A stretch of 64,000 nucleotides of DNA from a virus. Shown here piece by piece: positions 7,960 through 57,452 of the stretch. Below the pieces are notes generated by a model. The model made no database searches. It saw only the letters and a list, made by a program, of their open reading frames with translations, and had not been told where the DNA came from. The stretch is taken from positions 32,001-96,000 of IMG/VR virus record IMGVR_UViG_3300020159_002019; one strand, given 5' to 3'. How positions within the stretch are numbered: position 1 is the first letter of the stretch; the number at the start of each line of letters is the position of its first letter. The position numbers and the translations under genes are program-made.

Positions 7960-8243
7960 TTTGTTTTTGGTTTAAAAAATGTTTTATTTTCTTTTATTTC
8001 TTTTAATACATTATAATATAATAGTGTATTCCATAATATTTTACCACTATCACTTAATGGTTCGCTTTGTTCTGTGGCTTCATTTACATCGAGGTCGTTT
8101 AAGCTAATAAATTGATCAATCCACATTCTTAAAACGTCAAACTTACCAATATTTATTTCACCTTCACCTTGCTCAACGCAACTGATAACCGTATCTAAAT
8201 CTAAGAAATATTCTTTATTTAGAACTTTAAAGTATTCTTTCAT
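7956..8243 (-). CDS. hypothetical protein
   Basis: Overlapping ORF in the operon. Confidence 0.55.
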   Translation of the reverse strand: MKEYFKVLNKEYFLDLDTVISCVEQGEGEINIGKFDVLRMWIDQFISLNDLDVNEATEQSEPLSDSGKILWNTLLYYNVLKEIKENKTFFKPKTK

Positions 8244-8754
8244 TTTCTATATCTAATAAATTATTTATGGAGTAGTCGCTTTGATGGTTTAAGTTGTAAA
8301 ACTTATTTAGTTTAACCACTTTTTTATCTTCAGGTTTATTATCCAATAAAAAAGGACTATCCGTTACAATCATATCAACTTCTTTCCATAAGTCAATAGA
8401 GTTTTTTCTAAAAACATACCCCTCAATATCACAATTCATTTTACATAAGAAATGTAATGTGCTGGGAACCATAATTTCAAATCCATTACATATAATATAA
8501 AATTGATGATTAGAATAATTTTTTTGTAGTTGATTACAATAACTAATAACACCCCTTTCAGATTCTTTAGCGAAACCAAATATTTCTAATACGTTTTCAC
8601 CTATGAAATCAAATATTTCATCACCAAAACTTTCTTCTAAAAAATATGGGTTTATCTCATCATTTAATGGACTTTTCTCATGTTCTTTAAAATACATATC
8701 AATTAATCTGGGGATATAATTTCTTAAAATATTTACATCTATACCTATTTTCAT
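8227..8754 (-). CDS. HAD-fold 5'(3')-deoxyribonucleotidase-like protein (possibly degenerate)
   Basis: MKIGIDVN start and VDMIVTDSP..KFYN end fit the NT5C-like pattern. Confidence 0.5.
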   Translation of the reverse strand: MKIGIDVNILRNYIPRLIDMYFKEHEKSPLNDEINPYFLEESFGDEIFDFIGENVLEIFGFAKESERGVISYCNQLQKNYSNHQFYIICNGFEIMVPSTLHFLCKMNCDIEGYVFRKNSIDLWKEVDMIVTDSPFLLDNKPEDKKVVKLNKFYNLNHQSDYSINNLLDIENERIL

Positions 8755-43827: not shown

Positions 43828-44019
43828 ATGGGAAAGAAAATACAATTAACAGAAACGGAACTAATCAATCTTATTGAAAAGATGGTTAAAGAATATGATA
43901 AACCAGCAATGGCTTCATTCCAAAAACAATACGGAAAGAAAAAAGGAAAATCTGTTTATTATGCAACAGCAAATAAACAAAAAAGAAGTCCTGAAACTTT
44001 TAAGTTAAAAAGAAAATAA
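43828..44019 (+). CDS. small basic virion-type protein
   Basis: MGKKIQLTETELINLIEKMVKE N-terminal motif. Confidence 0.6.
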   Translation: MGKKIQLTETELINLIEKMVKEYDKPAMASFQKQYGKKKGKSVYYATANKQKRSPETFKLKRK

Positions 44020-44048
44020 TAAAAATAAAAAAAGTAAATAATAGACAA

Positions 44049-44468
44049 ATGAAAAAAATTGTAAGATTAACAGAAAACGATATTAGAAGAATCGTTAAAA
44101 GAGTTATGAATGAAGCTAAAGGTCCTGGTATGAATGAGGCTTTAGGTTTATTAGATGGTGATAGTGATACTCCAAGATCGGGTAGAAAAATGCCAAAACA
44201 ATATCTGACTAGACATATAGAATCAAGGGAAGATGCTGCAAGATATACTAAAGGAACTAAGATATCCGCTAGAGTATTGTTTGATATGTATATGAAAGGT
44301 ACAGATATTGAAGTTATAATGAATCCTGATAATGTTACCGGTCCTAATGGTAGACATAAGAAATTATTTGTTCTTAGTACGGGTCAAGTATATAATGAAT
44401 TAGATGAATATATGGGTAATTATAAAAAAGAAGGGTTTGATAAATTTGAAGATTATTTAGAATCTTAA
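44049..44468 (+). CDS. hypothetical virion-type protein
   Basis: MKKIVRLTENDIRRIVKRVMNE N-terminal motif. Confidence 0.6.
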   Translation: MKKIVRLTENDIRRIVKRVMNEAKGPGMNEALGLLDGDSDTPRSGRKMPKQYLTRHIESREDAARYTKGTKISARVLFDMYMKGTDIEVIMNPDNVTGPNGRHKKLFVLSTGQVYNELDEYMGNYKKEGFDKFEDYLES

Positions 44469-44479
44469 AAAATAAATAA

Positions 44480-44508
44480 AAAAATCCCCTAACAAAGGGG
44501 ATTTTTTT
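44480..44508 (+). terminator. intrinsic terminator
   Basis: AAAATCCCCT/AGGGGATTTT stem plus T tract. Confidence 0.7.
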
Positions 44509-44533
44509 ATGCCTTTTTATTATACTTGTAATA

Positions 44534-45481
44534 ATGGATTATTCACTTATTACAGATTTAGTTGTTTCAATATTTGGAAACATTAAAAAAACTTATCACG
44601 GAAACTCACAAGTAACCGTTGATTGTCCTTTGTGTTCCGCCGATAAAGGTGTTGAATATGATGGGAAAGGAAACCTTGAAATAAACCTTGAACAAGGATT
44701 ATCTCATTGTTGGTCTTGCGAAAGAACACCCGGAACAATTGATGGACTTATTAAAAAGTTCGGAAATAAACCCCAATATAAGACATTTAAAGTTATTGCC
44801 CCTGAATATGATTACCAAATCAATAAAAGAAAATATACTAAAAAAGATAATAACATTACGGAGTTTCCAAAAGAATTTATCCCGTTCTCAACAATAAATA
44901 AAAGAAACTATATCCACCTTCAACCATATAATTACATTATATCGAGAGGTTATACAGATGAATTATTAAAGGAATATAATATAGGGTTTTGTTTAGAAGG
45001 GAAATATAAACAAAGAATAGTAATACCATTATACGATAAGAAAGGTAATATTATTTATTTCTCAACCAGGTCATATACAGGTGCTAAACAAAAATATCTA
45101 AATCCTGATACAGATAAAGATGATTTAATATTTAATGAAAATAGAATTGATTGGGAAAAACCATTATATATTACAGAAGGTGTATTTGATGGATTACCAA
45201 TACCTAACCATTTCTTATTATTAGGGAAATCATTATCGGAGTTTAAATGGAAAACAATATATGATAACGCTAAATCGGATATTGTAATTGCTTTAGATCC
45301 TGACGCTAAAGAACAGACGTATAGAATGTATCAGAAGTTAAATGCTGGTAAATTAAGGAATAAAGTATTTGTATTACAATATACCGATGATAGGGATTTA
45401 GGTAAATTATTTGAAAATAAAAAAGATTTTAACGATACGATATTGAATTACAGATATTTAAGTGAATTTGAAATAATTTAA
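44534..45481 (+). CDS. DNA primase (zinc finger + TOPRIM)
   Basis: CPLC..HCWSC, RIVIP, KYLNP, ITEGVFD, ALDPDA, DLG motifs. Confidence 0.88.
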   Translation: MDYSLITDLVVSIFGNIKKTYHGNSQVTVDCPLCSADKGVEYDGKGNLEINLEQGLSHCWSCERTPGTIDGLIKKFGNKPQYKTFKVIAPEYDYQINKRKYTKKDNNITEFPKEFIPFSTINKRNYIHLQPYNYIISRGYTDELLKEYNIGFCLEGKYKQRIVIPLYDKKGNIIYFSTRSYTGAKQKYLNPDTDKDDLIFNENRIDWEKPLYITEGVFDGLPIPNHFLLLGKSLSEFKWKTIYDNAKSDIVIALDPDAKEQTYRMYQKLNAGKLRNKVFVLQYTDDRDLGKLFENKKDFNDTILNYRYLSEFEII

Positions 45482-45581
45482 TTTAAAAAACATTTGGAAG
45501 TATAAAAAATTATATTACCTTTGTGGTATGAAAAATTAATTACATATTTAATGGTAATTATTTAAAAAAAATAAAAAAAAG

Positions 45582-45612
45582 TTTGACAATTAAAAAAAAA
45601 GTAGTATCTTTG
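45582..45612 (+). promoter_or_regulatory. Bacteroidetes sigmaA-type promoter of tRNA array 1
   Basis: TTTG-N19-TATCTTTG. Confidence 0.75.
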
Positions 45613-45658
45613 TATCACAAATAAGAAAAACATACTATTTATTAGTAAGAAAATATAT

Positions 45659-45731
45659 CGTGGAGTAGTAGCAGTGGTAGCTCGCAAGGCTCATAACCTT
45701 GAGGTCGGTGGTTCGAATCCATCCTCCGCAA
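45659..45731 (+). tRNA. tRNA-fMet(CAT)
   Basis: Cloverleaf with CAAGG-CTCATAA-CCTTG arm and C1:A72 mismatch. Confidence 0.85.
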
Positions 45732-45769
45732 CAATTTAAAAAAAGTAAAACAATTAAAAAAAAAAGATT

Positions 45770-45847
45770 ATGACAACAATTATTAACATATTTGAATTTA
45801 ACGTGATTGAGGATAGAAGCCTCGGTTTGGGATATCTTTGTGTCTAA
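45770..45847 (+). CDS. leader peptide of attenuator 1 (MTTIINIFEFNVIEDRSLGLGYLCV)
   Basis: 25-aa ORF rich in I/F/E/D codons, overlapping the antiterminator strand. Confidence 0.75.
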   Translation: MTTIINIFEFNVIEDRSLGLGYLCV

Positions 45848-45870
45848 TAATGTGTAGTTAGAATGAATTA

Positions 45871-45905
45871 AAAGAAACCCAAACCTAATAAGTTTGGGTT
45901 TTTTT
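45871..45905 (+). terminator. attenuator terminator 1
   Basis: AAACCCAAAC/GTTTGGGTTT stem plus U tract; 5' arm also pairs with GGTTTGGG at 45824-45831. Confidence 0.8.
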
Positions 45906-45930
45906 GTTTTATATTGTTATTTGAAAATAC

Positions 45931-46006
45931 GGTTCATAGGTCAAATGGTTAAGATATCTCCCTGTCACGGAGTATGGAGCGGGTTCGATTCCCGTATGAA
46001 CCGCCA
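45931..46006 (+). tRNA. tRNA-Asp(GTC)
   Basis: CTCC-CTGTCAC-GGAG arm; encoded CCA. Confidence 0.9.
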
Positions 46007-46012
46007 AAATAG

Positions 46013-46089
46013 GGTATCAGGGGCTGCTGGGTGTGGCTACTTGACTGTCACTCAAGAAAAACAGGTGGGTTCGAATCCCATTGGTACCG
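46013..46089 (+). tRNA. tRNA-Asp(GTC), second divergent copy
   Basis: CTTGA-CTGTCAC-TCAAG arm; canonical T arm. Confidence 0.8.
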
Positions 46090-46100
46090 CAAAAATAAAT

Positions 46101-46174
46101 GTTCCGTTGGACAAATTGGTTAAGTCGTTTCCCTTTCAAGGAAAAGATTGCGGGTTCAAATCCCGTACGGAATA
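46101..46174 (+). tRNA. tRNA-Glu(TTC)
   Basis: TTTCC-CTTTCAA-GGAAA arm. Confidence 0.88.
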
Positions 46175-46181
46175 CAAAAAT

Positions 46182-46254
46182 GGGTTTATAGTGAAATTGG
46201 TGATCACGCATCCCTGATAAGGATGTATTATAGGTTCAAATCCTATTAGACCTA
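46182..46254 (+). tRNA. tRNA-Ile(GAT)
   Basis: CATCC-CTGATAA-GGATG arm. Confidence 0.88.
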
Positions 46255-46260
46255 CAATAT

Positions 46261-46333
46261 GGTGCAGTGGCAGATAAGGTTATTGCGGCGGACTGAAAAT
46301 CCGTAGGAGTCGGATCGTTACCGACCTGCACCA
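46261..46333 (+). tRNA. tRNA-Phe(GAA)
   Basis: GCGGA-CTGAAAA-TCCGT arm; variant T loop ATCGTTA. Confidence 0.85.
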
Positions 46334-46342
46334 CAATAATAT

Positions 46343-46416
46343 ACTACCATAGCTCAATTGGTGAGAGCAGGATGCTTATACCATCAAGGTTGTCGGTTCA
46401 AATCCGGTTGGTAGTA
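46343..46416 (+). tRNA. tRNA-Ile(TAT)
   Basis: GATG-CTTATAC-CATC arm; canonical D and T arms. Confidence 0.82.
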
Positions 46417-46421
46417 CAAAT

Positions 46422-46492
46422 GGGATAAAAGCACATAAGGATGTGCAGACCCTAAACAGGGTAAGGATTGGGTTCGAATCCCAGATATTCCA
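46422..46492 (+). tRNA. tRNA-like gene with aberrant anticodon arm (undetermined)
   Basis: Acceptor, D and T arms present; anticodon arm ACCCT-AAAC-AGGGT lacks a 7-nt loop. Confidence 0.6.
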
Positions 46493-46545
46493 CAAAAAAA
46501 TTAAAAAAAGTTTGGAAATAATAAAAAAAGGAGTATCTTTGTAGT

Positions 46546-47403
46546 ATGGCAAAAATAGAAACATTAAAAGCAAAATTCCCTAATATAACCGAACAAACAT
46601 TTATTCGTTTATTTGAGGGTGACAAGACATCTACTAAAAAGTATGCTGAATTTTTACTTTCCGCTTGGAATAGAAAAGGGACAAATTATGGTGGTTTAAG
46701 GGGTGTTGATGACTATATTAAATTGGTTGAGAATTTTGAGAAATTAACCCCTTATATTGATAATAAGGATATATACTCTTATGGAGATATTCAATCAATA
46801 GTTGGTGTTGTTAAAATAGCTGAAGCCGAAAAAAATGAAAAATCTTTTGATAAAGATGAACACATTTCAGTTATTGAAGAAACTGAAGATTATATCTTTT
46901 TGATACCTAAAACACACGTTGGTTCATTAAAATATGGTTCTAATACTAAATGGTGCACAGCGGCATCAACAAGTCCTGGAACTTTTAAATCATATATTGA
47001 TAGAGGTTTTTTAGCTTATTTAGTTGATAAGAAAAATAAAAAGACGAATAATCAAAATAAATTGGCTTTTTATTTTACAAATAAAGAAAACTTACTTACA
47101 CAAGTAATCCAAATCTTTAATCAATTAGATTCACTTGTAAATGAAAACCAAGTAATACAGAGTGGTTGGGATATTATGTTATTGAGTAATCTTATAACTA
47201 AATTGAGGGTTTTCTTATTTGAGTTTAAGGAGAAAGAAAAAGTTAGGGTTGAAGTATCTAAAACAATTCAACAATTGAATCAAATCAATTACGATAACTT
47301 CTTTAATGCTTTAAATACGTTAAAGATAAATCCTGAGAATGTTGAAGAATTGAAAAACGCTTTAGGGTTAGTTAAAACTTCAATGAAAAAAATCAAAGTA
47401 TGA
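46546..47403 (+). CDS. hypothetical protein, YGxxxKWCT family
   Basis: KYGSNTKWCTA motif; sigmaA-type promoter at 46511-46541 directly upstream. Confidence 0.65.
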   Translation: MAKIETLKAKFPNITEQTFIRLFEGDKTSTKKYAEFLLSAWNRKGTNYGGLRGVDDYIKLVENFEKLTPYIDNKDIYSYGDIQSIVGVVKIAEAEKNEKSFDKDEHISVIEETEDYIFLIPKTHVGSLKYGSNTKWCTAASTSPGTFKSYIDRGFLAYLVDKKNKKTNNQNKLAFYFTNKENLLTQVIQIFNQLDSLVNENQVIQSGWDIMLLSNLITKLRVFLFEFKEKEKVRVEVSKTIQQLNQINYDNFFNALNTLKINPENVEELKNALGLVKTSMKKIKV

Positions 47404-47750
47404 GGAGTGTAAAACAAATCAAAAAGTTAAGATATACTAATGATTGGGTGTCAAATGTTGATGATTCAAATATAACTTATCGTCTTTTTACTTATAATGG
47501 TTTAACTTGGAATGTTATTTTAACTAACCGACAAGAATTAGGTGGTTGGACAATAAGGTTATGTAATAATGATGGTGATGAATTATACATTTTTAATTCA
47601 GGTGTGAATAGAATGTCCATATCAATAAATGACGATTTAATTTACGAATTAGATGGTTGGTATTATGAAAATATAACTGAATTGAAGAATAGGTTAGAAA
47701 ACGATTTAATCGTATTATTAAGGAAATATGAGGAGTATATCAAAAATTAG
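47400..47750 (+). CDS. hypothetical protein
   Basis: Coupled ORF. Confidence 0.55.
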   Translation: MRSVKQIKKLRYTNDWVSNVDDSNITYRLFTYNGLTWNVILTNRQELGGWTIRLCNNDGDELYIFNSGVNRMSISINDDLIYELDGWYYENITELKNRLENDLIVLLRKYEEYIKN

Positions 47751-48060
47751 GGTAAGTGTAAAACAAGATTTTCAAGAATGGTTGGAAAAAACTACCATTA
47801 GTAGATGGATGCCAAGACATAGAATAATATGTAATGATGGGTTTTCTATGTCAGTTCAGGGTGGTGAGTTTACATATTCAAACCCAAGACAATTTGGTAG
47901 TAGTTTTACTGAAATGGAGATTGGGTTTCCTTCTGAGTATGAAGAATTGATTAGTAGTTATTCTGACTCTAATGAATATACTCAAACTGTTTATCCATAT
48001 GTCCCAGTAAGTTTAATTATTGAAGTGATTGAAAAACACGGAGGAATAAAAAAAGATTAG
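47728..48060 (+). CDS. hypothetical phage protein
   Basis: ICNDGFSMSVQG..YSNPR..EIGFPS..VYPYVP. Confidence 0.65.
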   Translation: MRSISKIRVSVKQDFQEWLEKTTISRWMPRHRIICNDGFSMSVQGGEFTYSNPRQFGSSFTEMEIGFPSEYEELISSYSDSNEYTQTVYPYVPVSLIIEVIEKHGGIKKD

Positions 48061-48077
48061 AAAAAAATAAAAAAAGA

Positions 48078-48108
48078 TTTGACAAGTTAAAAAAAAATGT
48101 TATCTTTG
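48078..48108 (+). promoter_or_regulatory. Bacteroidetes sigmaA-type promoter of tRNA array 2
   Basis: TTTG-N19-TATCTTTG. Confidence 0.75.
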
Positions 48109-48187
48109 TATAACAAATGGGATATGAAAATATTTTTTAGATTTCCTTGACAAAAACAAAAAAACAAACTATTTATAAATTAAAGAT

Positions 48188-48298
48188 ATGAAAAACACGA
48201 ATAAAAATATGACTATGGTTGTGAAAGCAACGGCAAAAGGTGGGAATAGAAATACCACACTTGGTTTAGGGCGTGTTATGTCTTTAATGGATAGATAA
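48188..48298 (+). CDS. leader peptide of attenuator 2 (MKNTNKNMTMVVKATAKGGNRNTTLGLGRVMSLMDR)
   Basis: 36-aa ORF; the first 24 codons encode only M/K/N/T/V/A/G/R. Confidence 0.8.
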   Translation: MKNTNKNMTMVVKATAKGGNRNTTLGLGRVMSLMDR

Positions 48299-48322
48299 TA
48301 CAATAATATAAAAAGATATATT

Positions 48323-48359
48323 AAAAACCCTGAACCATAAAAAAGTTCAGGGTTTTTTT
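48323..48359 (+). terminator. attenuator terminator 2
   Basis: AAAAACCCTGAAC/GTTCAGGGTTTTT stem; 5' arm also pairs with TGGTTTAGGG at 48262-48271. Confidence 0.8.
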
Positions 48360-48367
48360 ATTTATAA

Positions 48368-48439
48368 TCCAGATTAGTTTAATTGGGAAAACACGTCTCT
48401 TGTAAAGATGAAAAGTTGGTTCGAATCCGACATTTGGAT
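48368..48439 (+). tRNA. tRNA-Thr(TGT)
   Basis: CGTCT-CTTGTAA-AGATG arm. Confidence 0.85.
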
Positions 48440-48545
48440 CAAAGAAAATAGTAAAAAATTAATTAAAAATATGAAACGAAAACAGTAGGGTGTATGATCA
48501 ATTAGGAATAGGTTGCATACACTAAAAATTAAAAAAAATGTATAT

Positions 48546-48633
48546 GCACCTATGGCTTAATTGGTAGAGCAACCGGCTTTTAACCGGTGGGGTAGACGAA
48601 AGTCCGTTGAAGGTTCGAGTCCTTCTGGGTGCA
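48546..48633 (+). tRNA. tRNA-Lys(TTT) with long variable arm
   Basis: ACCGG-CTTTTAA-CCGGT arm; extra GAC-GAAA-GTC hairpin. Confidence 0.85.
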
Positions 48634-48639
48634 CAATTT

Positions 48640-48712
48640 ACTTTCGTAGCTTAATTGGTAAAGAAACTAACTCTTAATTAGTGTGATGTGAGTTCGAGTC
48701 TCACTGGAAGTA
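48640..48712 (+). tRNA. tRNA-Lys(CTT)
   Basis: ACTAA-CTCTTAA-TTAGT arm. Confidence 0.82.
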
Positions 48713-48739
48713 CTAAATGTTATTTGAAATATTATAAAT

Positions 48740-48812
48740 TGGGATGTAACTCAGAGGCTAGAGTGTTTGCCTGTTAAGCAAAAAGTCGAGATATCGTAAT
48801 TCTCCATCCCAG
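48740..48812 (+). tRNA. tRNA-Asn(GTT)
   Basis: TTTGC-CTGTTAA-GCAAA arm; variant T loop. Confidence 0.8.
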
Positions 48813-48873
48813 CAAAAATTGAAAGATAAACGTATGAAACAAAGGAATGTAGTGGTTTATTAAGTAAATATAT

Positions 48874-48945
48874 GGCTCTATCGTTTAACGCATAAGACAT
48901 TTCTCTTCTAAAGAAAGAATAGGGGTTGGATTCCCTTTAGAGCCA
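48874..48945 (+). tRNA. tRNA-Arg(TCT)
   Basis: TTTCT-CTTCTAA-AGAAA arm. Confidence 0.8.
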
Positions 48946-48952
48946 CAGCAAT

Positions 48953-48977
48953 CCAAGTTCGATTCTTGGTGGGAGTA
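48953..48977 (+). pseudogene. tRNA 3' fragment (T arm + acceptor 3' strand)
   Basis: CCAAG-TTCGATT-CTTGG-TGGGAGT-A with no 5' half. Confidence 0.6.
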
Positions 48978-48986
48978 CAAAAAAAT

Positions 48987-49057
48987 ACCTTCTTAGTTAA
49001 ATGGGAGAATATCTGTTTTACATACAGAAGATAACTGTTCGATTCAGTTAGGGGGTA
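48987..49057 (+). tRNA. tRNA-Val(TAC)
   Basis: TCTGT-TTTACAT-ACAGA arm. Confidence 0.82.
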
Positions 49058-49109
49058 CAAAAAAAGATTTGATTTTTTAAAAAAAATTATTATCTTTAAA
49101 AAACAATAT

Positions 49110-49182
49110 GGGGTTATGGTATAGTTGGCGAACACAGTAGCTTTGCAAGCTTCAGTCCCGAGTTCAAATCTCGGTAGCTCCA
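49110..49182 (+). tRNA. tRNA-Ala(TGC)
   Basis: TTTGCAA anticodon loop; G3:U70 pair. Confidence 0.88.
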
Positions 49183-49185
49183 CAA

Positions 49186-49255
49186 TGTTTCACTTAGAAT
49201 AAAAACAAACGCTTAATAGCAACAAACTCTTAATTTGTCAATTATTAGTGAAACA
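49186..49255 (+). ncRNA. Y-RNA-like stem element A with a Lys(CTT) anticodon-stem-loop mimic
   Basis: TGTTTCACT/AGTGAAACA closing stem, CACTTAGAATAA motif, internal ACAAA-CTCTTAA-TTTGT. Confidence 0.55.
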
Positions 49256-49258
49256 AAT

Positions 49259-49329
49259 GTCGATATAGTTAAATGGGATAACACCCCTCTCATCAAGGGA
49301 AGTTATTGGTTCGAATCCAGTTATCGATA
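49259..49329 (+). tRNA. tRNA-Met(CAT), elongator (Ile2 not excluded)
   Basis: CCCT-CTCATCA-AGGG arm; paired 1:72. Confidence 0.78.
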
Positions 49330-49340
49330 CCCTGAAATAA

Positions 49341-49417
49341 TATTTCACTTAGAATAAAAAACTATTTGAATTTATCCTCCAATGGAGGGTGTATTTAATC
49401 CAATTAATAGTGAAATA
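49341..49417 (+). ncRNA. Y-RNA-like stem element B
   Basis: TATTTCACT/AGTGAAATA closing stem with the same CACTTAGAATAAAAA and CAATTAxTAGTGAAA ends as element A. Confidence 0.55.
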
Positions 49418-49420
49418 AAT

Positions 49421-49493
49421 GCGGGTGTAGCTCAATTGGTAGAGCGCGACCTTGCCAAGGTCGAGGCTGTGGGATCGTACCCCATCACCCGCT
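49421..49493 (+). tRNA. tRNA-Gly(GCC)
   Basis: CGACC-TTGCCAA-GGTCG arm. Confidence 0.9.
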
Positions 49494-49496
49494 CAT

Positions 49497-49703
49497 TGAG
49501 TAAGAGGTACTCAGTAGTCTTTAATCCAAGACTCATTTAACAATGGATTCGCTTAAATCGGACAGCGAAAATGCCGGTTCTTAGGAATAAGGAGCGAAGC
49601 ACACCTCCCCTTCGTAGTGTGACTATTTTTAATGGGGATGCCCTTCAGGTTTTTGGAAAGAAGAAAACCGAAATGACTACTCACCTAAATCTCAAGGTGG
49701 GGT
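49497..49703 (+). ncRNA. unidentified ~200-nt structured RNA with two potential pseudoknots
   Basis: Series of hairpins with loop-to-downstream complementarity; GC richer than flanks; lies between two Gly tRNAs. Confidence 0.55.
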
Positions 49704-49709
49704 AAACAA

Positions 49710-49781
49710 GCGAGTATCGTATAATGGCTATTATACCACGCTTCCAACGTGGGGATGTGATTTCGATTATCACTACTCGCT
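49710..49781 (+). tRNA. tRNA-Gly(TCC)
   Basis: CCACG-CTTCCAA-CGTGG arm. Confidence 0.85.
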
Positions 49782-49794
49782 CCGGACGTTTTAG

Positions 49795-49832
49795 AAATCA
49801 GTAATATTTTTTTGGTATTACTGATTTTTTTT
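49795..49832 (+). terminator. terminator ending tRNA array 2 (overlaps the yqeY promoter)
   Basis: AAATCAGTAATA/TATTACTGATTT stem plus T tract; TACCTTTG at 49835. Confidence 0.7.
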
Positions 49833-49858
49833 ATTACCTTTGTAGAAATAATAAAATT

Positions 49859-50308
49859 ATGACACTTAAAGAACAAATTCAAAAAGACTTCATCACGGCT
49901 ATGAAAAATAAAGATGAATGGACTAAATCCGCTCTAAGTGGGTTAAAATCAAAGATTACTGAAGCTGAAAAAGTTAATGGAACAGAATTATCAGACGCTG
50001 ATATTCTTAAACTAATTAATAAAGGTATTAAACAAAGGGAAGAATCTGCTACTATATATAGTGAAGCAGGTCGTCCGGAATTAGCTGCGAAAGAATTACT
50101 TGAACTTAATGTTTTAATGGATTATATGCCAGCTCAAATGACTGATGAGGAAATTGAAACGGCTGTAAGGGAAATTATTGTTGGATTACCTACAATGACA
50201 AACGCAAATGCCTTGTCAGGAAAAACTATGGGTGAATTCAATAAAAAGTATCAAGGAATGGCTGATTCTAAAAGAGTTTCAGAAATTATAAAAAAAGTTG
50301 TATCATAA
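49859..50308 (+). CDS. yqeY: GatB/YqeY domain protein
   Basis: LKEQIQKDFITAMKNKD..KQREESATIYSEAGRPELA..YMPAQM. Confidence 0.9.
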   Translation: MTLKEQIQKDFITAMKNKDEWTKSALSGLKSKITEAEKVNGTELSDADILKLINKGIKQREESATIYSEAGRPELAAKELLELNVLMDYMPAQMTDEEIETAVREIIVGLPTMTNANALSGKTMGEFNKKYQGMADSKRVSEIIKKVVS

Positions 50309-50352
50309 TTTGACTTTCAATAAACAATAAACTATAATTAAAAAACAAAAAT

Positions 50353-50463
50353 GGGGGGTAATTTTTTAGTGGATTGAAAATACCACTTAGAATAACTCTA
50401 AACTATATTGGTAAAAGTTTGACTAATAATCAAATATAGAAGGTTCGAACCCTTCACCCCCCG
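50353..50463 (+). ncRNA. tRNA-like RNA with expanded anticodon loop (YrlA-like, or intron-containing tRNA-Leu(TAG))
   Basis: GGGGGGT/ACCCCCC acceptor, GAAGG-TTCGAAC-CCTTC T arm, variable hairpin, TACCA-[CTTAGAATAACTCTAAACTATAT]-TGGTA. Confidence 0.6.
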
Positions 50464-50493
50464 CAATTATTAACAATATAAAACATAAAGTAT

Positions 50494-52332
50494 ATGACAG
50501 AATTAGTAAAAGAAAAAATGAAGTTATCTAACACATTAGATACATTACAATTTTTAAGAACCGCTAAAGGTGCTTCAGATGAAAAAATTCATTTGGCTTT
50601 AGATAAAGCCTATGCTGAAACAACATCTAATGGAGTTGAGGAAATGTTATATAGAATTATGTTTCATATTGGAGATATTTCAAGAAAGCATAATATCTTT
50701 AAAGAATTTGAAATCAACTCAGAAGTGGGTGGGGCTCAAGAAAGAAAGATATTTAGATCTTGTGTAAGATGGATGCAAAAGAACACCCCAGAGTTCTTGC
50801 ATAACAACTTAAAGTTAGTAGTTGAATATACTTCATACGAAACTTTAATGTATTACCAAGTAAGCACAAACAGATATTTGGGTAATGTTATGGGTGTTGA
50901 AAAACTATTCATTGACAACCAATATTTGTTCCCTTTCTTAAAGTCTGAGATTGAATCAGGTGTAAACTTGAACTTAATCGCAAGACACTTACCTAAATAT
51001 GCTACAGGTAAGCAAAGAACAACTAAAAAGACTTTAGTTGGTAAAAGGGGAAGAACTGAATTCAGTTGGACATTACCGAAAGGTAAGACTTGGGTTAAAA
51101 TCAATGGAAACCTTGTAAATGGTGATAAAATCACGGTTAAGCATGGTGATGTTGCTGAATACCCAAGAGAAAAGAAATCTGAGTCTTTAACAAGACAAAG
51201 TTTCTTAAACAAGTGGATTAAGGATTTCTGTGATTATATGAAATGGACAATCGCTGATTACAAAGCATTTAAGGGTAAGCAGAATACTGCTGAACAAAAA
51301 ATGTCAAGTGGTTCAGTAATGTCTATGACAGAAGATCAATTTAATGGTTTCTTGGATTCTTTGACTGCGGGACAAAGAAAAAGGGTTGTAAAATCATTGG
51401 GTAATCCTAAATGGGGACAGCTAACTAAATGGTATAAGGCTTGGGAAGATGACCAATCTAACTTAGCTGAAAAAATTAGAAAAGCTACCACACCTGCTGA
51501 AAAAGCCGCTTTGATGAAAGATTTCAAAGTTAAAACAACAGGGGATCAAACAATTGATTTGTTGGCTGAAATGCTTGGTAAGGGTTTAAATGCTCAACAA
51601 GTAAATAACAACTATCAATCAATGATTGAGAGAATGAACATTAAACATTCAGTATTTCCAATTATTGACGGTTCGGGTTCTATGGATAGTACTTTTGACC
51701 ATAACGGTGTAGGAATATCTAACAGACAAGTAGCATACGCAATGGCAATTGCATTTACTACAATGAATCCAAACCCAAGATTTAGAAATACTTATGGTTG
51801 GTTCTCAAACGACTTTAAGGTTTTTGGTAGGTCTGAGTATGGTGATACCTATATATCTATGTTTAAGAATGTGGATAAGTATGTAAGTCATACAAAGACT
51901 TTTACTGAGAATTACAGATTACTTATGGAGACAGATCCAAAAGAAATTACATCTACAAATATGTTTGCTTCGGTAGAATATTTTGTAAATCTTGTGAAAA
52001 CAGGAAGATGTACTATGGAAGAATTACCTGAAACATTACTTTATCTTACAGATAATGAGTATAATTCAGGTAAATCACCAAAAGAAGCGGTTACTTTAGC
52101 CAATTCAATTGGATGGAGACCAAAGTTAATTTTTTGGGGTATTACCACAATGACTCATTCTATTAAGGAAGAGTTAAAATATACTCCGAATGGTTTATTC
52201 ATCGGTGGTTTCAACGAAAGTTGTTTATCACAAATCTTGGATGGAATCTCAAAAGATTCAATAAATCCAGAAGATGAATTGTGGGCTATTTATAACGATA
52301 TTCGTTATAGTGTAATTAAAGTAGGTGAATAA
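50494..52332 (+). CDS. Ro60/TROVE-like (DUF2828-type) protein with C-terminal vWA domain
   Basis: Helical N-terminal region with GAQERKIFR; MIDAS motif IIDGSGSM; STNM, LTDNEY, LIFWG. Confidence 0.7.
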   Translation: MTELVKEKMKLSNTLDTLQFLRTAKGASDEKIHLALDKAYAETTSNGVEEMLYRIMFHIGDISRKHNIFKEFEINSEVGGAQERKIFRSCVRWMQKNTPEFLHNNLKLVVEYTSYETLMYYQVSTNRYLGNVMGVEKLFIDNQYLFPFLKSEIESGVNLNLIARHLPKYATGKQRTTKKTLVGKRGRTEFSWTLPKGKTWVKINGNLVNGDKITVKHGDVAEYPREKKSESLTRQSFLNKWIKDFCDYMKWTIADYKAFKGKQNTAEQKMSSGSVMSMTEDQFNGFLDSLTAGQRKRVVKSLGNPKWGQLTKWYKAWEDDQSNLAEKIRKATTPAEKAALMKDFKVKTTGDQTIDLLAEMLGKGLNAQQVNNNYQSMIERMNIKHSVFPIIDGSGSMDSTFDHNGVGISNRQVAYAMAIAFTTMNPNPRFRNTYGWFSNDFKVFGRSEYGDTYISMFKNVDKYVSHTKTFTENYRLLMETDPKEITSTNMFASVEYFVNLVKTGRCTMEELPETLLYLTDNEYNSGKSPKEAVTLANSIGWRPKLIFWGITTMTHSIKEELKYTPNGLFIGGFNESCLSQILDGISKDSINPEDELWAIYNDIRYSVIKVGE

Positions 52333-52342
52333 CCTACTTTTT

Positions 52343-52561
52343 TTATGCCTTTATTTTAACCACAACCTCACCTTCATTATTAGTGGTTAGATAATATTCT
52401 TTTTTGTTTGTAAATCCATATTTTTTAGATATGTTTGATTCTATCCTTTTTTTGGTTGATGGTGTGTTAGCAAATGTAATATGTGGTTGAACATATTCAT
52501 CTTTGAATTGTTCCATTTTATTTACCGTTTCTTTAATAATTCTCTTAATTAAATTTTTCAT
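52343..52561 (-). CDS. small virion-type protein
   Basis: MKNLIKRIIKE N-terminal motif; TATTTAT upstream on the minus strand. Confidence 0.55.
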   Translation of the reverse strand: MKNLIKRIIKETVNKMEQFKDEYVQPHITFANTPSTKKRIESNISKKYGFTNKKEYYLTTNNEGEVVVKIKA

Positions 52562-52628
52562 ATAAATAAATATTTGGTTTTATGAAAACTATTATTTATA
52601 TTTGTATTGTAATTAAAAAATAAAATAT

Positions 52629-53294
52629 ATGTATAATAACAAAACAGATTTTAACAAATTCGCAACATCGCATATGGGTATATCGTCTTTATACCTCGAT
52701 GATCTTCAATCGTCAATGACACCTCACATCTTAGAAGAAAGACCGACAAGAGCAAATCTTATGTCAGTATTTGATAGATTGATGCAAGATAGGATTATTT
52801 GGGTTGCCGGTGCGGTTGATGAGGGTATGTCACAAGTTATTCAAGCGCAATTGATTTACTTGTCAAACTCAGACCCTAAGAAAGAAATTACGATGCACAT
52901 TGACACTCCTGGTGGTTCAGTAAAGGCTGGATTATCAATCGTGGATGTAATGGATTATGTTAAACCTGACATTAGAACAATCAATACAGGTATGGCGGCA
53001 TCAATGGGTTCAGTATTGTTAGGCGCTGGAACCAAAGGAAAAAGAATGTCTTTAAGATTTTCACAAACAATGCTACACCAATCTTCAGGTGGTGTGAGAG
53101 GAAATATTCAGGATGCTAGGATAACAATGATTGAATGGGAAAAAATAAATGATTTGTTATTTAATTTGTTAGGTGGGTATTGTGGTAAGGATGCTATCCA
53201 AGTAAAAGAAGATGCTTCTCGTGATTTATGGTTAAGTTCTGAAGAAGCGTTGGCTTATGGGATAATTGACGAAATAATCAAACCAAAAAAATAA
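52629..53294 (+). CDS. clpP: ATP-dependent Clp protease proteolytic subunit
   Basis: DRIIW, TPGGSV, GMAASMG (Ser), MLHQ (His), RDLWL (Asp), YGIID. Confidence 0.95.
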   Translation: MYNNKTDFNKFATSHMGISSLYLDDLQSSMTPHILEERPTRANLMSVFDRLMQDRIIWVAGAVDEGMSQVIQAQLIYLSNSDPKKEITMHIDTPGGSVKAGLSIVDVMDYVKPDIRTINTGMAASMGSVLLGAGTKGKRMSLRFSQTMLHQSSGGVRGNIQDARITMIEWEKINDLLFNLLGGYCGKDAIQVKEDASRDLWLSSEEALAYGIIDEIIKPKK

Positions 53295-53305
53295 TTAAAA
53301 AAAAG

Positions 53306-53336
53306 TTTGACAATTAGAAAAAAAATATTATCTTTG
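53306..53336 (+). promoter_or_regulatory. Bacteroidetes sigmaA-type promoter of tRNA array 3
   Basis: TTTG-N19-TATCTTTG. Confidence 0.75.
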
Positions 53337-53411
53337 TATTATAAATGGGATGTGAAAAATATTTTTCACATTTCCATAACAAAAACAAAAAAACAAACTA
53401 TTTAATATAAA

Positions 53412-53546
53412 ATGAAAACATTAATTAACATATCATTATCGTCATTGTATCTATTACAGTCGCTATGCCAAAGTTGTGTTTCGGTATTACCGTTACATCA
53501 GTATTGGTTAGTGCTAGGATTTAGTGCGGTGGGTATGTTAAGTTGA
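53412..53546 (+). CDS. leader peptide of attenuator 3 (MKTLINISLSSLYLLQSLCQSCVSVLPLHQYWLVLGFSAVGMLS)
   Basis: 44-aa ORF; 24 of codons 8-33 encode S/L/Y/Q/C/P/H/W. Confidence 0.8.
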   Translation: MKTLINISLSSLYLLQSLCQSCVSVLPLHQYWLVLGFSAVGMLS

Positions 53547-53568
53547 TAAGACAATAATATACCTTATT

Positions 53569-53610
53569 AAACCCCCTAAATCCGTATAAATGAGATTTAG
53601 GGGGTTTTTT
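53569..53610 (+). terminator. attenuator terminator 3
   Basis: AAACCCCCTAAATC/GATTTAGGGGGTTT stem plus U tract; 5' arm also pairs with GGATTTAG at 53517-53524. Confidence 0.8.
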
Positions 53611-53644
53611 ATTTTAGTTATTTGACATATTGTATTAGAAATAT

Positions 53645-53717
53645 CAGGGTGTATATCAATTGGGAGATTACTCCATTTGGATTGGAGAGGTTGTAGGTTC
53701 GAGTCCTATCACCCTGA
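53645..53717 (+). tRNA. tRNA-Pro(TGG)
   Basis: CTCCA-TTTGGAT-TGGAG arm. Confidence 0.85.
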
Positions 53718-53724
53718 CAAATAT

Positions 53725-53795
53725 TCCCCTTTCGTCTAACGGCAGGACAGATGGTTTTGAGCTATCGAATCGAGGTTCGAATCCTTGAGGGGGAA
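53725..53795 (+). tRNA. tRNA-Gln(TTG)
   Basis: GATGG-TTTTGAG-CTATC arm; U1:A72. Confidence 0.85.
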
Positions 53796-53847
53796 CCGGT
53801 TTGGGTTTTACACTTTTAAACTTACGAGATAAGGAAAAAGTGAAATT

Positions 53848-53918
53848 GGGATGATGCCGAGAGTGGTCAGACGGTCTGTAAAACCGAACTGCATAGTGTT
53901 TGAGTCACTTCCATCCCA
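53848..53918 (+). tRNA. tRNA-Tyr(GTA), atypical (short variable region)
   Basis: CGGT-CTGTAAA-ACCG arm; divergent D and T arms. Confidence 0.65.
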
Positions 53919-53928
53919 CAAAATAAAC

Positions 53929-54002
53929 GTAAGTGTAGTGAACAATGGCTAACACGTTCGGTTCCAACCCGAAAGATGTGGGTTCGACCCCTACCACTTG
54001 CG
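53929..54002 (+). tRNA. tRNA-Trp(CCA)
   Basis: TTCGG-TTCCAAC-CCGAA arm; G73. Confidence 0.85.
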
Positions 54003-54009
54003 CAAATAA

Positions 54010-54104
54010 GGAGAGGTGCTAGAGATGGATTATTGGGCTAGTCTTGAAAACTAGAGATCGTCAGTGATGGGGATCCGTGGGTTCGAATCCCACTCTCTCC
54101 TCCA
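54010..54104 (+). tRNA. tRNA-Ser(TGA)
   Basis: CTAGT-CTTGAAA-ACTAG arm, long variable arm, encoded CCA. Confidence 0.88.
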
Positions 54105-54109
54105 AATAT

Positions 54110-54188
54110 GGGTTTGTTGGTGTTAATTGGATGAGCATTTACGATTGTGGCTCGTAAGGTGAGGGGTTCGAATCCCCCATAAACCCCA
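54110..54188 (+). tRNA. tRNA-His(GTG)
   Basis: TACGA-TTGTGGC-TCGTA arm; G-1:C73. Confidence 0.85.
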
Positions 54189-54268
54189 AAAGTAAGGAAT
54201 TAGGTTATTATACGTAGGCTCCGAGTGTAATAACTGAAATTTAGATCCTTATGAACTTCGGTCCGCAG

Positions 54269-54356
54269 GGAGAATTGACAGAGTGGTAATGTATCGGTTT
54301 GCTAATCCGTAGTCTATGTAAAAGTAGCGGGGGCTCGAATCCCTCATTCTCCGCCA
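54269..54356 (+). tRNA. tRNA-Ser(GCT)
   Basis: TTGCTAA loop, long variable arm, encoded CCA. Confidence 0.82.
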
Positions 54357-54365
54357 AAAATAAAT

Positions 54366-54454
54366 GCTTCTGTGGCGAAATTGGTAGCACGCGATGGACT
54401 TAAAATCCATTGGGAAATAACAGTACCGTGTCGGTTCGATTCCGACCAGAAGTA
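54366..54454 (+). tRNA. tRNA-Leu(TAA)
   Basis: ATGGA-CTTAAAA-TCCAT arm, long variable arm. Confidence 0.88.
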
Positions 54455-54461
54455 CAAACAT

Positions 54462-54547
54462 ACCCCAATGTTGGAATGTAGACAACCTAGTTTTAGAAAC
54501 TAGTGTGAAGTAATAGTAGCGTCTGGGTTCAAATCCCAGTTGGGGTA
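54462..54547 (+). tRNA. tRNA-Leu(TAG)
   Basis: CTAGT-TTTAGAA-ACTAG arm. Confidence 0.82.
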
Positions 54548-54553
54548 CAAAAT

Positions 54554-54641
54554 GGGAATGTGGTGTGAGTGGTTGAAACCGGGGGTCTGCAAAACCCCAA
54601 AAACGAAAGTTTTCACGTCAGTTCGAATCTGATCATTCCCT
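54554..54641 (+). tRNA. tRNA-Cys(GCA) with long variable arm
   Basis: GGGGT-CTGCAAA-ACCCC arm; U73; extra AAAAC-GAAA-GTTTT hairpin. Confidence 0.82.
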
Positions 54642-54650
54642 CAATTACAT

Positions 54651-54723
54651 GACCCCATAGTTCAATGGATTAGAATACTTGAATACGGATCAGGAGATGA
54701 GAGTTCAAATCTTTCTGGGGTTA
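54651..54723 (+). tRNA. tRNA-Arg(ACG)
   Basis: CTTGA-ATACGGA-TCAGG arm. Confidence 0.8.
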
Positions 54724-54726
54724 CAA

Positions 54727-54755
54727 AAAGAAAACCATTTTTATATGGTTTTTTT
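54727..54755 (+). terminator. terminator ending tRNA array 3
   Basis: AAAACCAT/ATGGTTTT stem plus T tract. Confidence 0.65.
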
Positions 54756-54779
54756 TATGCCATTACATATTTATTACAT

Positions 54780-57452
54780 ATGATTATTATTGAAGGAAAA
54801 TTAGAAGATTTATCTAAGAAATATATACCGAAGTTTAATAGGGATTCATTTACTGAAGGTTTAACCCCTGAATCTGTTATTGAGCATTTATATGTTTCAG
54901 ATCCATCACCAACAAAGAAATACTTTGAGTGGATGATTAAAGAATGTTTGGGATTGATAGAACGTAATTATGTTATTAACAATGAAAAAATAGCTAAACT
55001 TGTAACGGATATCCAAGAATTTGATAGAAATATTGATAAACTTAGTCAGGATTTTTTAGATTATAATAAAGAAGAAATTGGTGAAATTGCGTATAAGTTT
55101 TTAAATGGTAAGGCTTTAAAAGATATTGGTACATATAATTACGATATTTTAAGAAAAATAATACCTTCATTGGTAGAATATAAGACAGAAAGTCAAAGAA
55201 GAAGATTGGCTAAAGAAGGTGCTAAAATTATATTTCAAGATGAAAAATATGATGTTTATGAAATAGATACTTATGACGCTTCTTGTTTTTATGGTCAAGG
55301 TTCTAAATGGTGTACAACTTATAAACAAAGTGATTCACATTTTAAATCATATGGTACTGGTAGGAATAAATTATTATATGTTATTAGTAAAACTAAGACA
55401 AAAGAAACTGATCCTCAATTTTATAAGATTGCTATAAATATAAGGTATGTTGATGAACAAATAACATTTTGGGATGCTCCTGATAATAGTTTTAATGGTT
55501 GGAAATATTTTAGGGAACAAGATCCAAATATTTTAACTTTTTTGATTTCTTATATTAAAGAAAAGAATCCTGAAGGATATCTTAAAATGATACCTGAAAA
55601 CTATTTAATAACGATTAAACAAGAAGAAGAAGGTTTAAGTGATTTAAATATTATTTCGGTTTTAGATGTTGATAAATCTAGTGATTGGTTAAGTCATAAA
55701 TATGGGTTAAATGGTGTGGATACTATTATTAAAAAATTGGATATATTACAAGGTAATGTCAGTAATTTTTTAGGTGATTATTTTACCAGTGATGAAAAAG
55801 AGTATTTAATCATAAAAAGAAGTGAGAAATTAGAACCAAGAGGTTTGTCGTGGAAAGATTTAGTTAAAAGTTATCACCAATTAGCAATTACTCTAGATAG
55901 CTATCAACCAAGTTGGTTTATTGATAATTTTTTAGGTGGGGATAAAAACAAAGCGTTAGAAATTGGGACAAAAGAACCGATAGTACTATATTGGTTGGCT
56001 AGAGGTAGTGTTAATATAAAGGATTTGGGTGATTTATATGGAGCTGAAAAACTTGTTAAATATATTACTAAAAGTAAAGTTAAAGTTATTTTTGGGTTAA
56101 GTGATATATTGGGTGGTTTATTTACAAATGAAACTCCAAAGAAAAGAAAGGAGTTATATGAAATTGCTTATAAGTATGATGGCAAAAAAAGGAATATTGA
56201 ATTAGTCGATTATTTGTCTAGACGTATGGGTAAAGAGGGATTCATTGCGTCATTTAATAAAGGTGATGGATATGGAATTGAACCTGATTCATATGGAAGA
56301 GCATTTTTATATGTTAAAAATAATAACCCTGATTTAATAAGTAATGTATTTAACATTGAGGATATTAGTAAAATCTTCAAGTCAAACGAAAAAGCGTTTA
56401 CTTATTTATTAAAAAATTATGATGAATTTACACGTAATTTAGATATTAGTGATTTAACTGAAATGTTTAGTGGTGATGTTCCTGATAGTATATATGGTAA
56501 ATATATGAGTGATTGGGAAAAGAGGAATGTTGCGTCAATATATAGAATGAAAAATGGTTCTGAAAAACTATTTGATTTTGTTCTTAAAAAGTTTTCTTTT
56601 AAAAAGTTAGCCGATATCATCGGATATGATGGAGTATTTCAATTATTTTCTATTGTTAAGTTTAAAAAAGGTATAAACTATATGATTGAAAATAAGGTTG
56701 GCGATATCGCTATTGATGATATAAAAATAAAAGATGGTAAGGTGGTATTGGTTGTTAATGATAGAACGGATTATGCGTTTTTATTTGATGATGAAGATTT
56801 GGCTAAAACTATATTGGGTGAAGATATGGATTGGGAACCGTATAACGATACTATTTATAATTGGTATGATCAAGTATGGGATTGTATGGTACCAAAATCA
56901 ATTGAACTGGTTAAGTCTTGGATTAAAAGTAATATAACAGATTATGAGAATGATGAAGGTGAAAAAATTGATTTAGGTGATACATATTTAAATGAAATAG
57001 ATGATGATGATTTGGGTAAAATAATAGATGAGTACGATGAATTTAGGGATTTAAAAAATGAGATGAGTTGGGCTTATGATAATGGTTATAATTCTGTTGC
57101 TCAAAGTGATATTATTAGTAAAACACAAGATCAATTAGAAGAATATTTAGGTAGTTATATAGGGTATGAACCAGTTAAAAAGAATGGTCGTAGATATAAT
57201 AAAGAAACAGGTAATTCTGAATCATACGAATATACAGCATATGAATACTTATATAATGTGGGTGATGGTTTATATGATATATTATATGATTATGCAACTA
57301 CTAATTGGGGTCATTCGGTTGATTACAACACATATTTTAGCACTTTATTAAAGGATTCTGACCCTAAAAAGTTATATATTGATACTGAGGCTTATCCAGA
57401 CGATAAAGAAATTTGTGAGTATTTTAATGATGATTTACCGGAAAGAATATGA
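54780..57452 (+). CDS. large hypothetical protein, YGxxxKWCT family
   Basis: DPSPTKKYFEWM and FYGQGSKWCTT motifs; acidic C-terminal region. Confidence 0.65.
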   Translation: MIIIEGKLEDLSKKYIPKFNRDSFTEGLTPESVIEHLYVSDPSPTKKYFEWMIKECLGLIERNYVINNEKIAKLVTDIQEFDRNIDKLSQDFLDYNKEEIGEIAYKFLNGKALKDIGTYNYDILRKIIPSLVEYKTESQRRRLAKEGAKIIFQDEKYDVYEIDTYDASCFYGQGSKWCTTYKQSDSHFKSYGTGRNKLLYVISKTKTKETDPQFYKIAINIRYVDEQITFWDAPDNSFNGWKYFREQDPNILTFLISYIKEKNPEGYLKMIPENYLITIKQEEEGLSDLNIISVLDVDKSSDWLSHKYGLNGVDTIIKKLDILQGNVSNFLGDYFTSDEKEYLIIKRSEKLEPRGLSWKDLVKSYHQLAITLDSYQPSWFIDNFLGGDKNKALEIGTKEPIVLYWLARGSVNIKDLGDLYGAEKLVKYITKSKVKVIFGLSDILGGLFTNETPKKRKELYEIAYKYDGKKRNIELVDYLSRRMGKEGFIASFNKGDGYGIEPDSYGRAFLYVKNNNPDLISNVFNIEDISKIFKSNEKAFTYLLKNYDEFTRNLDISDLTEMFSGDVPDSIYGKYMSDWEKRNVASIYRMKNGSEKLFDFVLKKFSFKKLADIIGYDGVFQLFSIVKFKKGINYMIENKVGDIAIDDIKIKDGKVVLVVNDRTDYAFLFDDEDLAKTILGEDMDWEPYNDTIYNWYDQVWDCMVPKSIELVKSWIKSNITDYENDEGEKIDLGDTYLNEIDDDDLGKIIDEYDEFRDLKNEMSWAYDNGYNSVAQSDIISKTQDQLEEYLGSYIGYEPVKKNGRRYNKETGNSESYEYTAYEYLYNVGDGLYDILYDYATTNWGHSVDYNTYFSTLLKDSDPKKLYIDTEAYPDDKEICEYFNDDLPERI

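Follow-up and report, generated by a model that had tools for sequence, protein, structure and literature searches.

An open reading frame of 25 codons and the terminator behind it probably act as a ribosome-mediated (leader-peptide) transcription attenuator that gates an Asp/Asp/Glu/Ile/Phe/Ile tRNA array in a phage genome, as judged from the sequence and from RNA folding. We refer to this arrangement as unit 1. The initial annotation had proposed an attenuator in front of this array (array 1), and in silico the proposal is supported by paralogous units, by antiterminator statistics, by conservation, by the drift of homologues and by the lack of an intervening promoter. The parts of unit 1, their complementarity, their conservation and the match between leader and array can be read in the sequence itself, and from these we infer that ribosomes translate the leader, that they do so while it is being transcribed, and that the switch responds to the supply of tRNA.

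In the proposed mechanism, transcription from the promoter at 45583-45612 would yield first an initiator-like tRNA-Met and then the leader mRNA. If charged tRNAs were scarce, codons 8-15 (Phe, Glu, Phe, Asn, Val, Ile, Glu, Asp) would be decoded slowly, and a ribosome stalled upstream of 45824-45831 would leave this strand to pair with 45878-85, which would prevent formation of the terminator and let the polymerase enter the tRNA genes. With fast decoding, a ribosome at the stop codon would mask or separate the two strands, and the hairpin at 45873-45903 with its T-run would end the transcript. Termination is also the predicted default when no ribosome is present. Unit 1 and its two paralogues, as three gates, would jointly cover the whole tRNA set of the phage.

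Genome setting and parts of unit 1

The window, the whole 64,000-nucleotide stretch that was analysed, comprises bases 32001-96000 of a 109-kb IMG/VR virus record, which is a fragment of an uncultured jumbo T4-like phage with a GC content of 29%. Because the record is 34% complete by the CheckV estimate, the full genome would measure about 320 kb. ARAGORN detects 27 tRNA genes in the record, all of them (27/27) inside the window, on the plus strand and in three blocks; the upstream neighbour of unit 1 is a DnaG-type primase gene. Most of the phage genes have A-rich starts with no Shine-Dalgarno (SD) motif, an SD-like tetramer being present in only 5 of 37 long ORFs. One promoter form recurs in the window, TTTGACA followed after 16 nt by TATCTTTG, a type that we take to be similar to the promoters of Bacteroidota; together with the SD-less starts, this promoter type indicates that the host is probably a member of that phylum. 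Megablast of window positions 44000-50000 against the phage collection returned nothing beyond tRNA-sized matches.

The components of unit 1 are collected in the table below; every coordinate and every letter of the initial annotation was found again at its position. The promoter lies in a 58-nt block that is repeated at 46494, 48061 and 53288. Upstream of the leader, the A fraction at positions -20 to -1 is 0.70, compared with a mean of 0.44 for the 37 long ORFs, and the last 14 nt of the A-rich spacer are invariant in six homologues. The terminator consists of a 12-14 bp stem with a T-run (-13.4 kcal/mol for the hairpin), and a promoter motif scan between it and the first tRNA found none.

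Features of unit 1 and of the array that it would gate (window coordinates)
Feature	Position	Strand	Basis
Unit 1 promoter: TTGACA-like box, 16-nt spacer, TATCTTTG box	45583-45612	+	Motif listing; recurring block
Initiator-like tRNA-Met(CAT), ungated	about 45659-45732	+	ARAGORN, Rfam
A-rich spacer, SD-less translation start region of the leader	45732-45769	+	Base composition
Leader ORF, 25 codons and TAA (45845-45847)	45770-45847	+	ATG at 45770
Family-wide prefix, codons 1-7, M[KT]T[ILF]INI	45770-45790	+	Shared with leaders of unrelated arrays
Predicted sensing codons 8-15 (FEFNVIED)	45791-45814	+	6/8 read by array 1 tRNAs
Region 1: 5' arm of predicted protector hairpin, pairs with 45820-45827	45805-45812	+	Folding
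Region 2: 5' strand of predicted antiterminator, core GGTTTGGG at 45824-45831	45820-45831	+	Duplex and folding
TATCTTTG box within the leader ORF, same as second promoter box	45833-45840	+	Motif identity
Region 3: 5' arm of terminator, shared with antiterminator, CCCAAACC at 45878-45885	45873-45885	+	
Region 4: 3' arm of terminator and T-run	45892-45909	+	
Short spacer ahead of first tRNA, without promoter motif	45910-45930	+	Motif scan
Array 1: tRNA-Asp, Asp, Glu, Ile(GAT), Phe, Ile(TAT)	45931-46417	+	ARAGORN, Rfam

The annotated placement of a tRNA-fMet upstream of the gate, and hence outside it, held up. The gene shows a mismatch, C1-A72, and of the three G-C pairs that mark the anticodon stem of bacterial initiators it retains two. 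Its best match in E. coli, at four places per genome, is the three-gene tRNA-Met cluster beside mltA, presumably the initiator genes metZWV; the tRNA-Met of array 2 has no E. coli match. A tRNA or tRNA-like gene with a CAT anticodon lies between promoter and leader in all six unit 1 homologues. Loci L007 and L015 have this tRNA-Met swapped for a different sequence with the leader kept, and in L020 the leader is likewise kept behind a SegE-like GIY-YIG homing endonuclease gene (7682-8380) that is inserted between tRNA and leader. The tRNA-Met genes of L007 (9191-9265) and L015 (about 3205-3280) have a poor acceptor stem and the T loop ATCGATA, with A at position 54, and that of L050 is truncated in the 5' acceptor strand (26 bits). 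Because an initiator tRNA is never read in the A site, a sensor based on an elongation stall could not measure it; the sensor also could not start without it and the state without a ribosome is predicted to terminate, so that a position outside the gate would be coherent.

Several further elements were observed around array 1. Following tRNA-Ile(TAT), a tRNA-like element at 46422-46492 is missed by ARAGORN and reaches a sub-threshold 23.8 bits in Rfam, with an anticodon loop that is too short for decoding. Because both L007 and L015 retain it and its T stem shows compensatory changes there, it is probably functional, perhaps as a decoy or a processing signal. At 46510-46548, TATCTTTG ends 5 nt before the ATG of the ORF 46546-47403, so the mRNA of this ORF probably has no leader or almost none. 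A second recurrent promoter-like motif, TTATTACCTTTGT, occurs at 45516, at 49835 and at about 4575 of L016; it differs from the TTTGACA/TATCTTTG class and may represent another temporal class.

The predicted RNA switch

The complementarity between GGTTTGGG (45824-45831) and CCCAAACC (45878-45885), on which the initial annotation rested its antiterminator, exceeds that of shuffled sequence: the 8-bp duplex has an energy of -13.3 kcal/mol, compared with -6.2 kcal/mol for 1000 dinucleotide shuffles (P=0.002). Its upstream strand begins at codon 18, three codons past the last matched codon, and re-counting gave the same 9 nt between the last Asp codon (45812-45814) and the first G of GGTTTGGG. The two structures exclude each other, as had been proposed, through the shared strand 45878-45885, with predicted energies of -18.3 kcal/mol for the antiterminator fold and -13.4 kcal/mol for the terminator; a protector hairpin (45805-12/45820-27) is predicted at -7.7 kcal/mol. 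In 9 of 10 units taken from different phages, the equivalent duplex beats its shuffles (P 0.001-0.07), and in seven of those nine, units 1-3 included, it starts just past the matched codons.

Equilibrium folding assigns the terminator a probability of 0.95 when no ribosome is placed on the leader. With the A site on codons 8-15 this value falls to 0.0-0.6, and from codon 16 onward it is at least 0.9; the dip is confined to codons 8-15 under three footprint sizes. When transcripts are cut before region 4, region 3 is paired (0.9) for an A site up to codon 14 and free once the A site reaches codon 17. In these models, a stall at codons 8-15 frees the antiterminator strand, and a ribosome at the stop codon favours the terminator. 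For five other units (unit 2, unit 3, unit 3 of L016 and both G001 units), folding of truncated transcripts likewise puts the switch point where the matched codons end. For those five, equilibrium folding always favours the terminator and the switch is visible only in the co-transcriptional view; for unit 1, the ribosome-dependent switch is predicted by equilibrium folding as well as in the co-transcriptional view.

When the ORF upstream of region 2 is shuffled, the protector hairpin is not distinguishable from the shuffles; since 96% of these also keep termination as the default, the hairpin is not statistically special. Its 5' arm is invariant in six homologues, and the sole change in the stem, U-G to U-A in L020, falls in the partner arm and costs one antiterminator pair. 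The RNA of the leader prefix (codons 1-7) pairs best with the region around the stop codon, 45838-45861 (-11.6 versus -7.6 kcal/mol, P=0.046). The same pairing is the best one in most units that bear this prefix, with single P values of 0.02-0.16, and Fisher's method, applied by hand to the P values of 11 independent units, gives an estimate of about 1e-4. This suggests a second role for the prefix, whose RNA would contribute a strand to the off state.

Comparison with Rfam leader families yielded nothing above the gathering threshold. Thr_leader (RF00506) came to 27 bits against a threshold of 55 (E=0.11, 45834-45908), and the sub-threshold matches to the Thr and Phe (RF01859) leaders are driven by the terminator; for the homologue L050, the leader scores are 23 and 20 bits. 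The T-box covariance model had no match at E up to 1 within 45400-55000.

Leader codons, paralogous units and homologues

The same layout, a promoter followed by a short ORF, a hairpin with a T-run and a tRNA array, is found three times in the window. In units 2 and 3, as in unit 1, the 5' arm of the terminator has a complementary strand in the 3' portion of the ORF, and there is no promoter motif between terminator and tRNAs. Codons 1-24 of unit 2 are confined to the eight amino acids of its ten tRNAs, and the tRNAs of unit 3 decode, under strict wobble rules, 22 codons in a run of 26 in their own leader. The leader-by-array matrix of the three units is diagonal. When 417 small ATG ORFs of the 109-kb record were scored against the three arrays (1251 tests), the leaders of units 2 and 3 took the top two ranks, each for its own array (P 7e-7 and 6e-12), and the leader of unit 1 ranked 40-44. 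Codon enrichment in the latter is modest (best window P about 3e-4), and unit 1 is the weakest codon match among the three units. The case for unit 1 therefore draws strength from its paralogues.

Some further observations concern blocks 2 and 3. The 5' UTRs of units 2 and 3 contain a conserved hairpin (48110-48140 and 53338-53370) at the position that the tRNA-Met occupies in unit 1. Between tRNA-Gln and tRNA-Trp, at about 53848-53929, lies a non-canonical tRNA-Tyr(GTA)-like gene that both ARAGORN and Rfam miss, and L015 has a canonical tRNA-Tyr in this slot; its presence in array 3 explains the two Tyr codons of the unit 3 leader. A 215-nt spacer separates two tRNA-Gly genes at 49495-49709; nothing in Rfam matches it, and its folding signal is weak (z=-1.7). 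Gaps of similar size separate the two tRNA-Gly genes of L007 and those of L015. Unit 2 of L015 (4756-4880) has lost leader and terminator; its promoter runs straight into two tRNA-Gly genes, and the other eight block 2 tRNAs are absent.

The initial annotation had counted nine Ile, Phe, Glu or Asp codons among codons 4-15 of the unit 1 leader. The count of 9/12 is correct, but it does not serve as an array-specific score, for which only codons 8-15 apply and which then amounts to 6/8; the remaining two sensing codons, AAC and GTG, are decoded by array 2 tRNAs. Codons 1-7 belong to the prefix M[KT]T[ILF]INI, which unit 1 has in common with unit 3 and with the leaders of Pro/His, Ser/Arg and Cys/Val/Leu arrays and which thereby heads leaders of arrays without any Ile tRNA. 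Because the prefix is generic, the two ATT codons and the ATA codon of unit 1 are unusable as probes for Ile tRNAs. The idea that ATA matches the rare tRNA-Ile(TAT) downstream was thus not sustained: the codon sits in the shared prefix, and it is common in this phage (32 per 1000, compared with 40 per 1000 for ATT). We rejected ATA as a specific probe for tRNA-Ile(TAT) also on the ground that it falls outside the modelled sensing window.

When viral and metagenome contigs were scanned for the prefix, many further short ORFs came up that are followed by a terminator and then a tRNA array, along with ordinary genes that share the N-terminus. The arrays behind these ORFs include Pro/His, Pro/Met/His/Gln/Glu, Cys/Val/Leu/Phe/Asp, Ser/Arg, Ser/Trp/Arg and Ser/Gln, and in each such unit what follows the prefix spells out the amino acids of the array behind it. 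The prefix-bearing loci are 45770-45790 and 53412-53432 in the window, together with L033, L034, L038 and L046-L083.

Conservation around unit 1 is concentrated on the leader and the terminator. The leader ORF is intact and of equal length in six homologues, and its peptide tail, LGLGYLCV, is conserved. In the close relatives L007, L015 and L020, the leader is 97-100% identical, and leader and terminator together differ by 0-2 mismatches in 113 nt; the flanking sequence diverges by 8-11% in the primase gene and by 13-20% in the tRNAs of the array. This conservation reaches synonymous sites and the non-coding terminator, of which region 4 (45892-45909) is 100% conserved in L007 and L015. In the diverged homologues L050 and L078, seven of the eight sensing codons fall in the D/E/I/F set, with E9D staying inside the set and N11I entering it. 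Only about 10 nt lie between their T-run and the first tRNA, too few for a separate promoter. An apparent absence of tRNA-Ile(TAT) from L007 did not stand: a diverged tRNA-like sequence, which ARAGORN fails to call, occupies the slot.

Leaders and arrays also change together in the other units. All eight substitutions in the matched part of unit 2 of L020 stay within the set of its array, as do three of four in L007, and in unit 3 of L007 a Cys codon is replaced by Arg(CGC), again within the set. In one relative, the gain of tRNA-Leu(AAG) is accompanied by a CTT codon that is new in the leader. In a distant, complete relative of 317 kb, whose arrays are of a different composition, namely Pro Asn Asp Gly Gly Thr and Glu Phe Cys Trp Tyr Met Gln Arg His Ser, the leaders take 13/16 and 17/21 residues from their own array sets. 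In a set of 14 independent units from several phages, the share of leader residues represented in the unit's own array averages 0.53, a value matched by 0 of 100,000 permutations of leaders to arrays. General codon adaptation does not explain such block-specific matching, because the three blocks together cover all amino acids. Near the homologous genes of distant protein relatives (L008-L012 and L021-L026), there were no tRNA arrays.

Unit 1 could alternatively report any slowdown or loss of translation, caused for instance by host shut-off, ribosome-targeting toxins or global starvation, rather than the supply of the array 1 amino acids. Two of its eight sensing codons lie outside the array 1 set, its prefix is generic, and geometry alone would set the sensing window whatever codons it contains, all of which would suit such a general function. 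We nevertheless consider it unlikely, given the highly specific matching in units 2 and 3 and in the units of other phages and the drift of unit 1 homologues within and into the D/E/I/F set. Moreover, as the state without a ribosome is predicted to terminate, a loss of translation would not induce array 1. It is likewise improbable that the hairpin is a plain terminator that ends or insulates a transcript of tRNA-fMet and the small ORF, with the ORF encoding a micropeptide or being incidental and array 1 expressed by constitutive leak or from an unrecognised promoter. In its favour are the conserved ORF and peptide tail and the modest codon statistics of unit 1, and phage-specific promoters may escape a motif scan. 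Against this stand the antiterminator duplex (P=0.002), which recurs with different sequences in the paralogues and in other phages, the short gap between T-run and first tRNA in L050 and L078, the conservation at synonymous and non-coding sites, and the outcome of the permutations (0/100,000).

The TATCTTTG box within the leader (45833-45840) raises the question of an internal promoter, from which an RNA of about 55 nt would extend to the terminator, the leader being secondary. Its sequence equals that of the second box in four promoters of the window, and six homologues carry it without any change. However, there is no TTGACA-like first box at promoter spacing upstream of 45833, about five such eight-letter matches per window are expected by chance, and the leaders of units 2 and 3 have no such box. 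With the first box missing and the count at chance level, we rejected an internal promoter as the main reading and regard it as very improbable; the box may serve as a pause element or as a weak start, or it may be a chance occurrence. At L017 (G001:C1:130500-140500, reverse strand), which belongs to the distant 317-kb relative, every terminator is followed by TATCTTTG ahead of the first tRNA, so an additional promoter may serve some arrays. At the same locus, TATCTTTG also precedes a lone tRNA-Arg, and small ORFs are interspersed among the tRNAs.

Relation to known systems and possible roles

Attenuation by leader peptides is well known from the enterobacterial trp, his, leu and pheA operons, and multivalent leaders control ilvGMEDA (Ile/Leu/Val) and thr (Thr/Ile). 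These share with unit 1 a short ORF, clustered codons for several amino acids, mutually exclusive hairpins and an outcome decided by the position of the stall. Whereas the enterobacterial attenuators gate biosynthetic enzymes, unit 1 would gate tRNA genes, and its product would therefore directly relieve the shortage that is measured. It further differs from them in being phage-borne, in occurring in three copies that divide the tRNA set and in carrying a shared, non-specific prefix. The pheST operon of E. coli, in which the pheM leader controls phenylalanyl-tRNA synthetase, similarly subjects a component of the translation apparatus to the decoding speed of its own codons; that attenuator is cellular, senses one amino acid and gates a synthetase, whereas unit 1 is viral and would sense several amino acids and gate tRNAs. 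T-box riboswitches also place translation-related genes under terminator/antiterminator control by tRNA status, but they bind uncharged tRNA directly and need neither ribosome nor ORF.

The nearest published system is the trn operon of Anabaena sp. PCC 7120, whose long tRNA array is kept silent until an impairment of translation induces it (PMC8421152, PMC10272220). It resembles unit 1 in being an induced array of accessory tRNAs, and differs in that control is exerted at the promoter, by the ribbon-helix-helix repressor TrcR on direct repeats (PMC8421152, PMC10272220). The words attenuat-, leader peptide and terminator are absent from the text of PMC8421152. Full-text literature searches returned no account of leader-peptide attenuation of tRNA genes; by the literature searched, gating of tRNA genes by leader attenuation in the style of the trp operon would be a new use of a known type of regulation.

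Phage tRNA genes are usually viewed either as constitutive aids to codon usage or as substitutes for tRNAs that host defences have destroyed, and to our knowledge little has been established about how their expression is controlled. A tentative possibility is that the three tRNA blocks are supplied on demand, each switched by a sampler peptide that is decoded slowly when tRNAs run short, with the initiator left ungated, and that the natural trigger is a loss of host tRNAs. If so, the gates would respond to tRNA-cleaving defences of the host or to phage-induced host shut-off rather than to amino-acid starvation, and as sensors they would release replacement tRNAs solely at the time and place of need.

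If leader codons indeed list the tRNAs encoded behind them, decoding speed would feed back directly on tRNA synthesis, and a testable rule would follow, namely that the sequence of the leader predicts the array. To this, unit 1 adds a switch that is seen even in equilibrium folding and an initiator tRNA that is placed outside the gate. The gates would constitute compact, portable sensors of individual tRNA pools, and they may help to find out which host tRNAs run short as infection proceeds.
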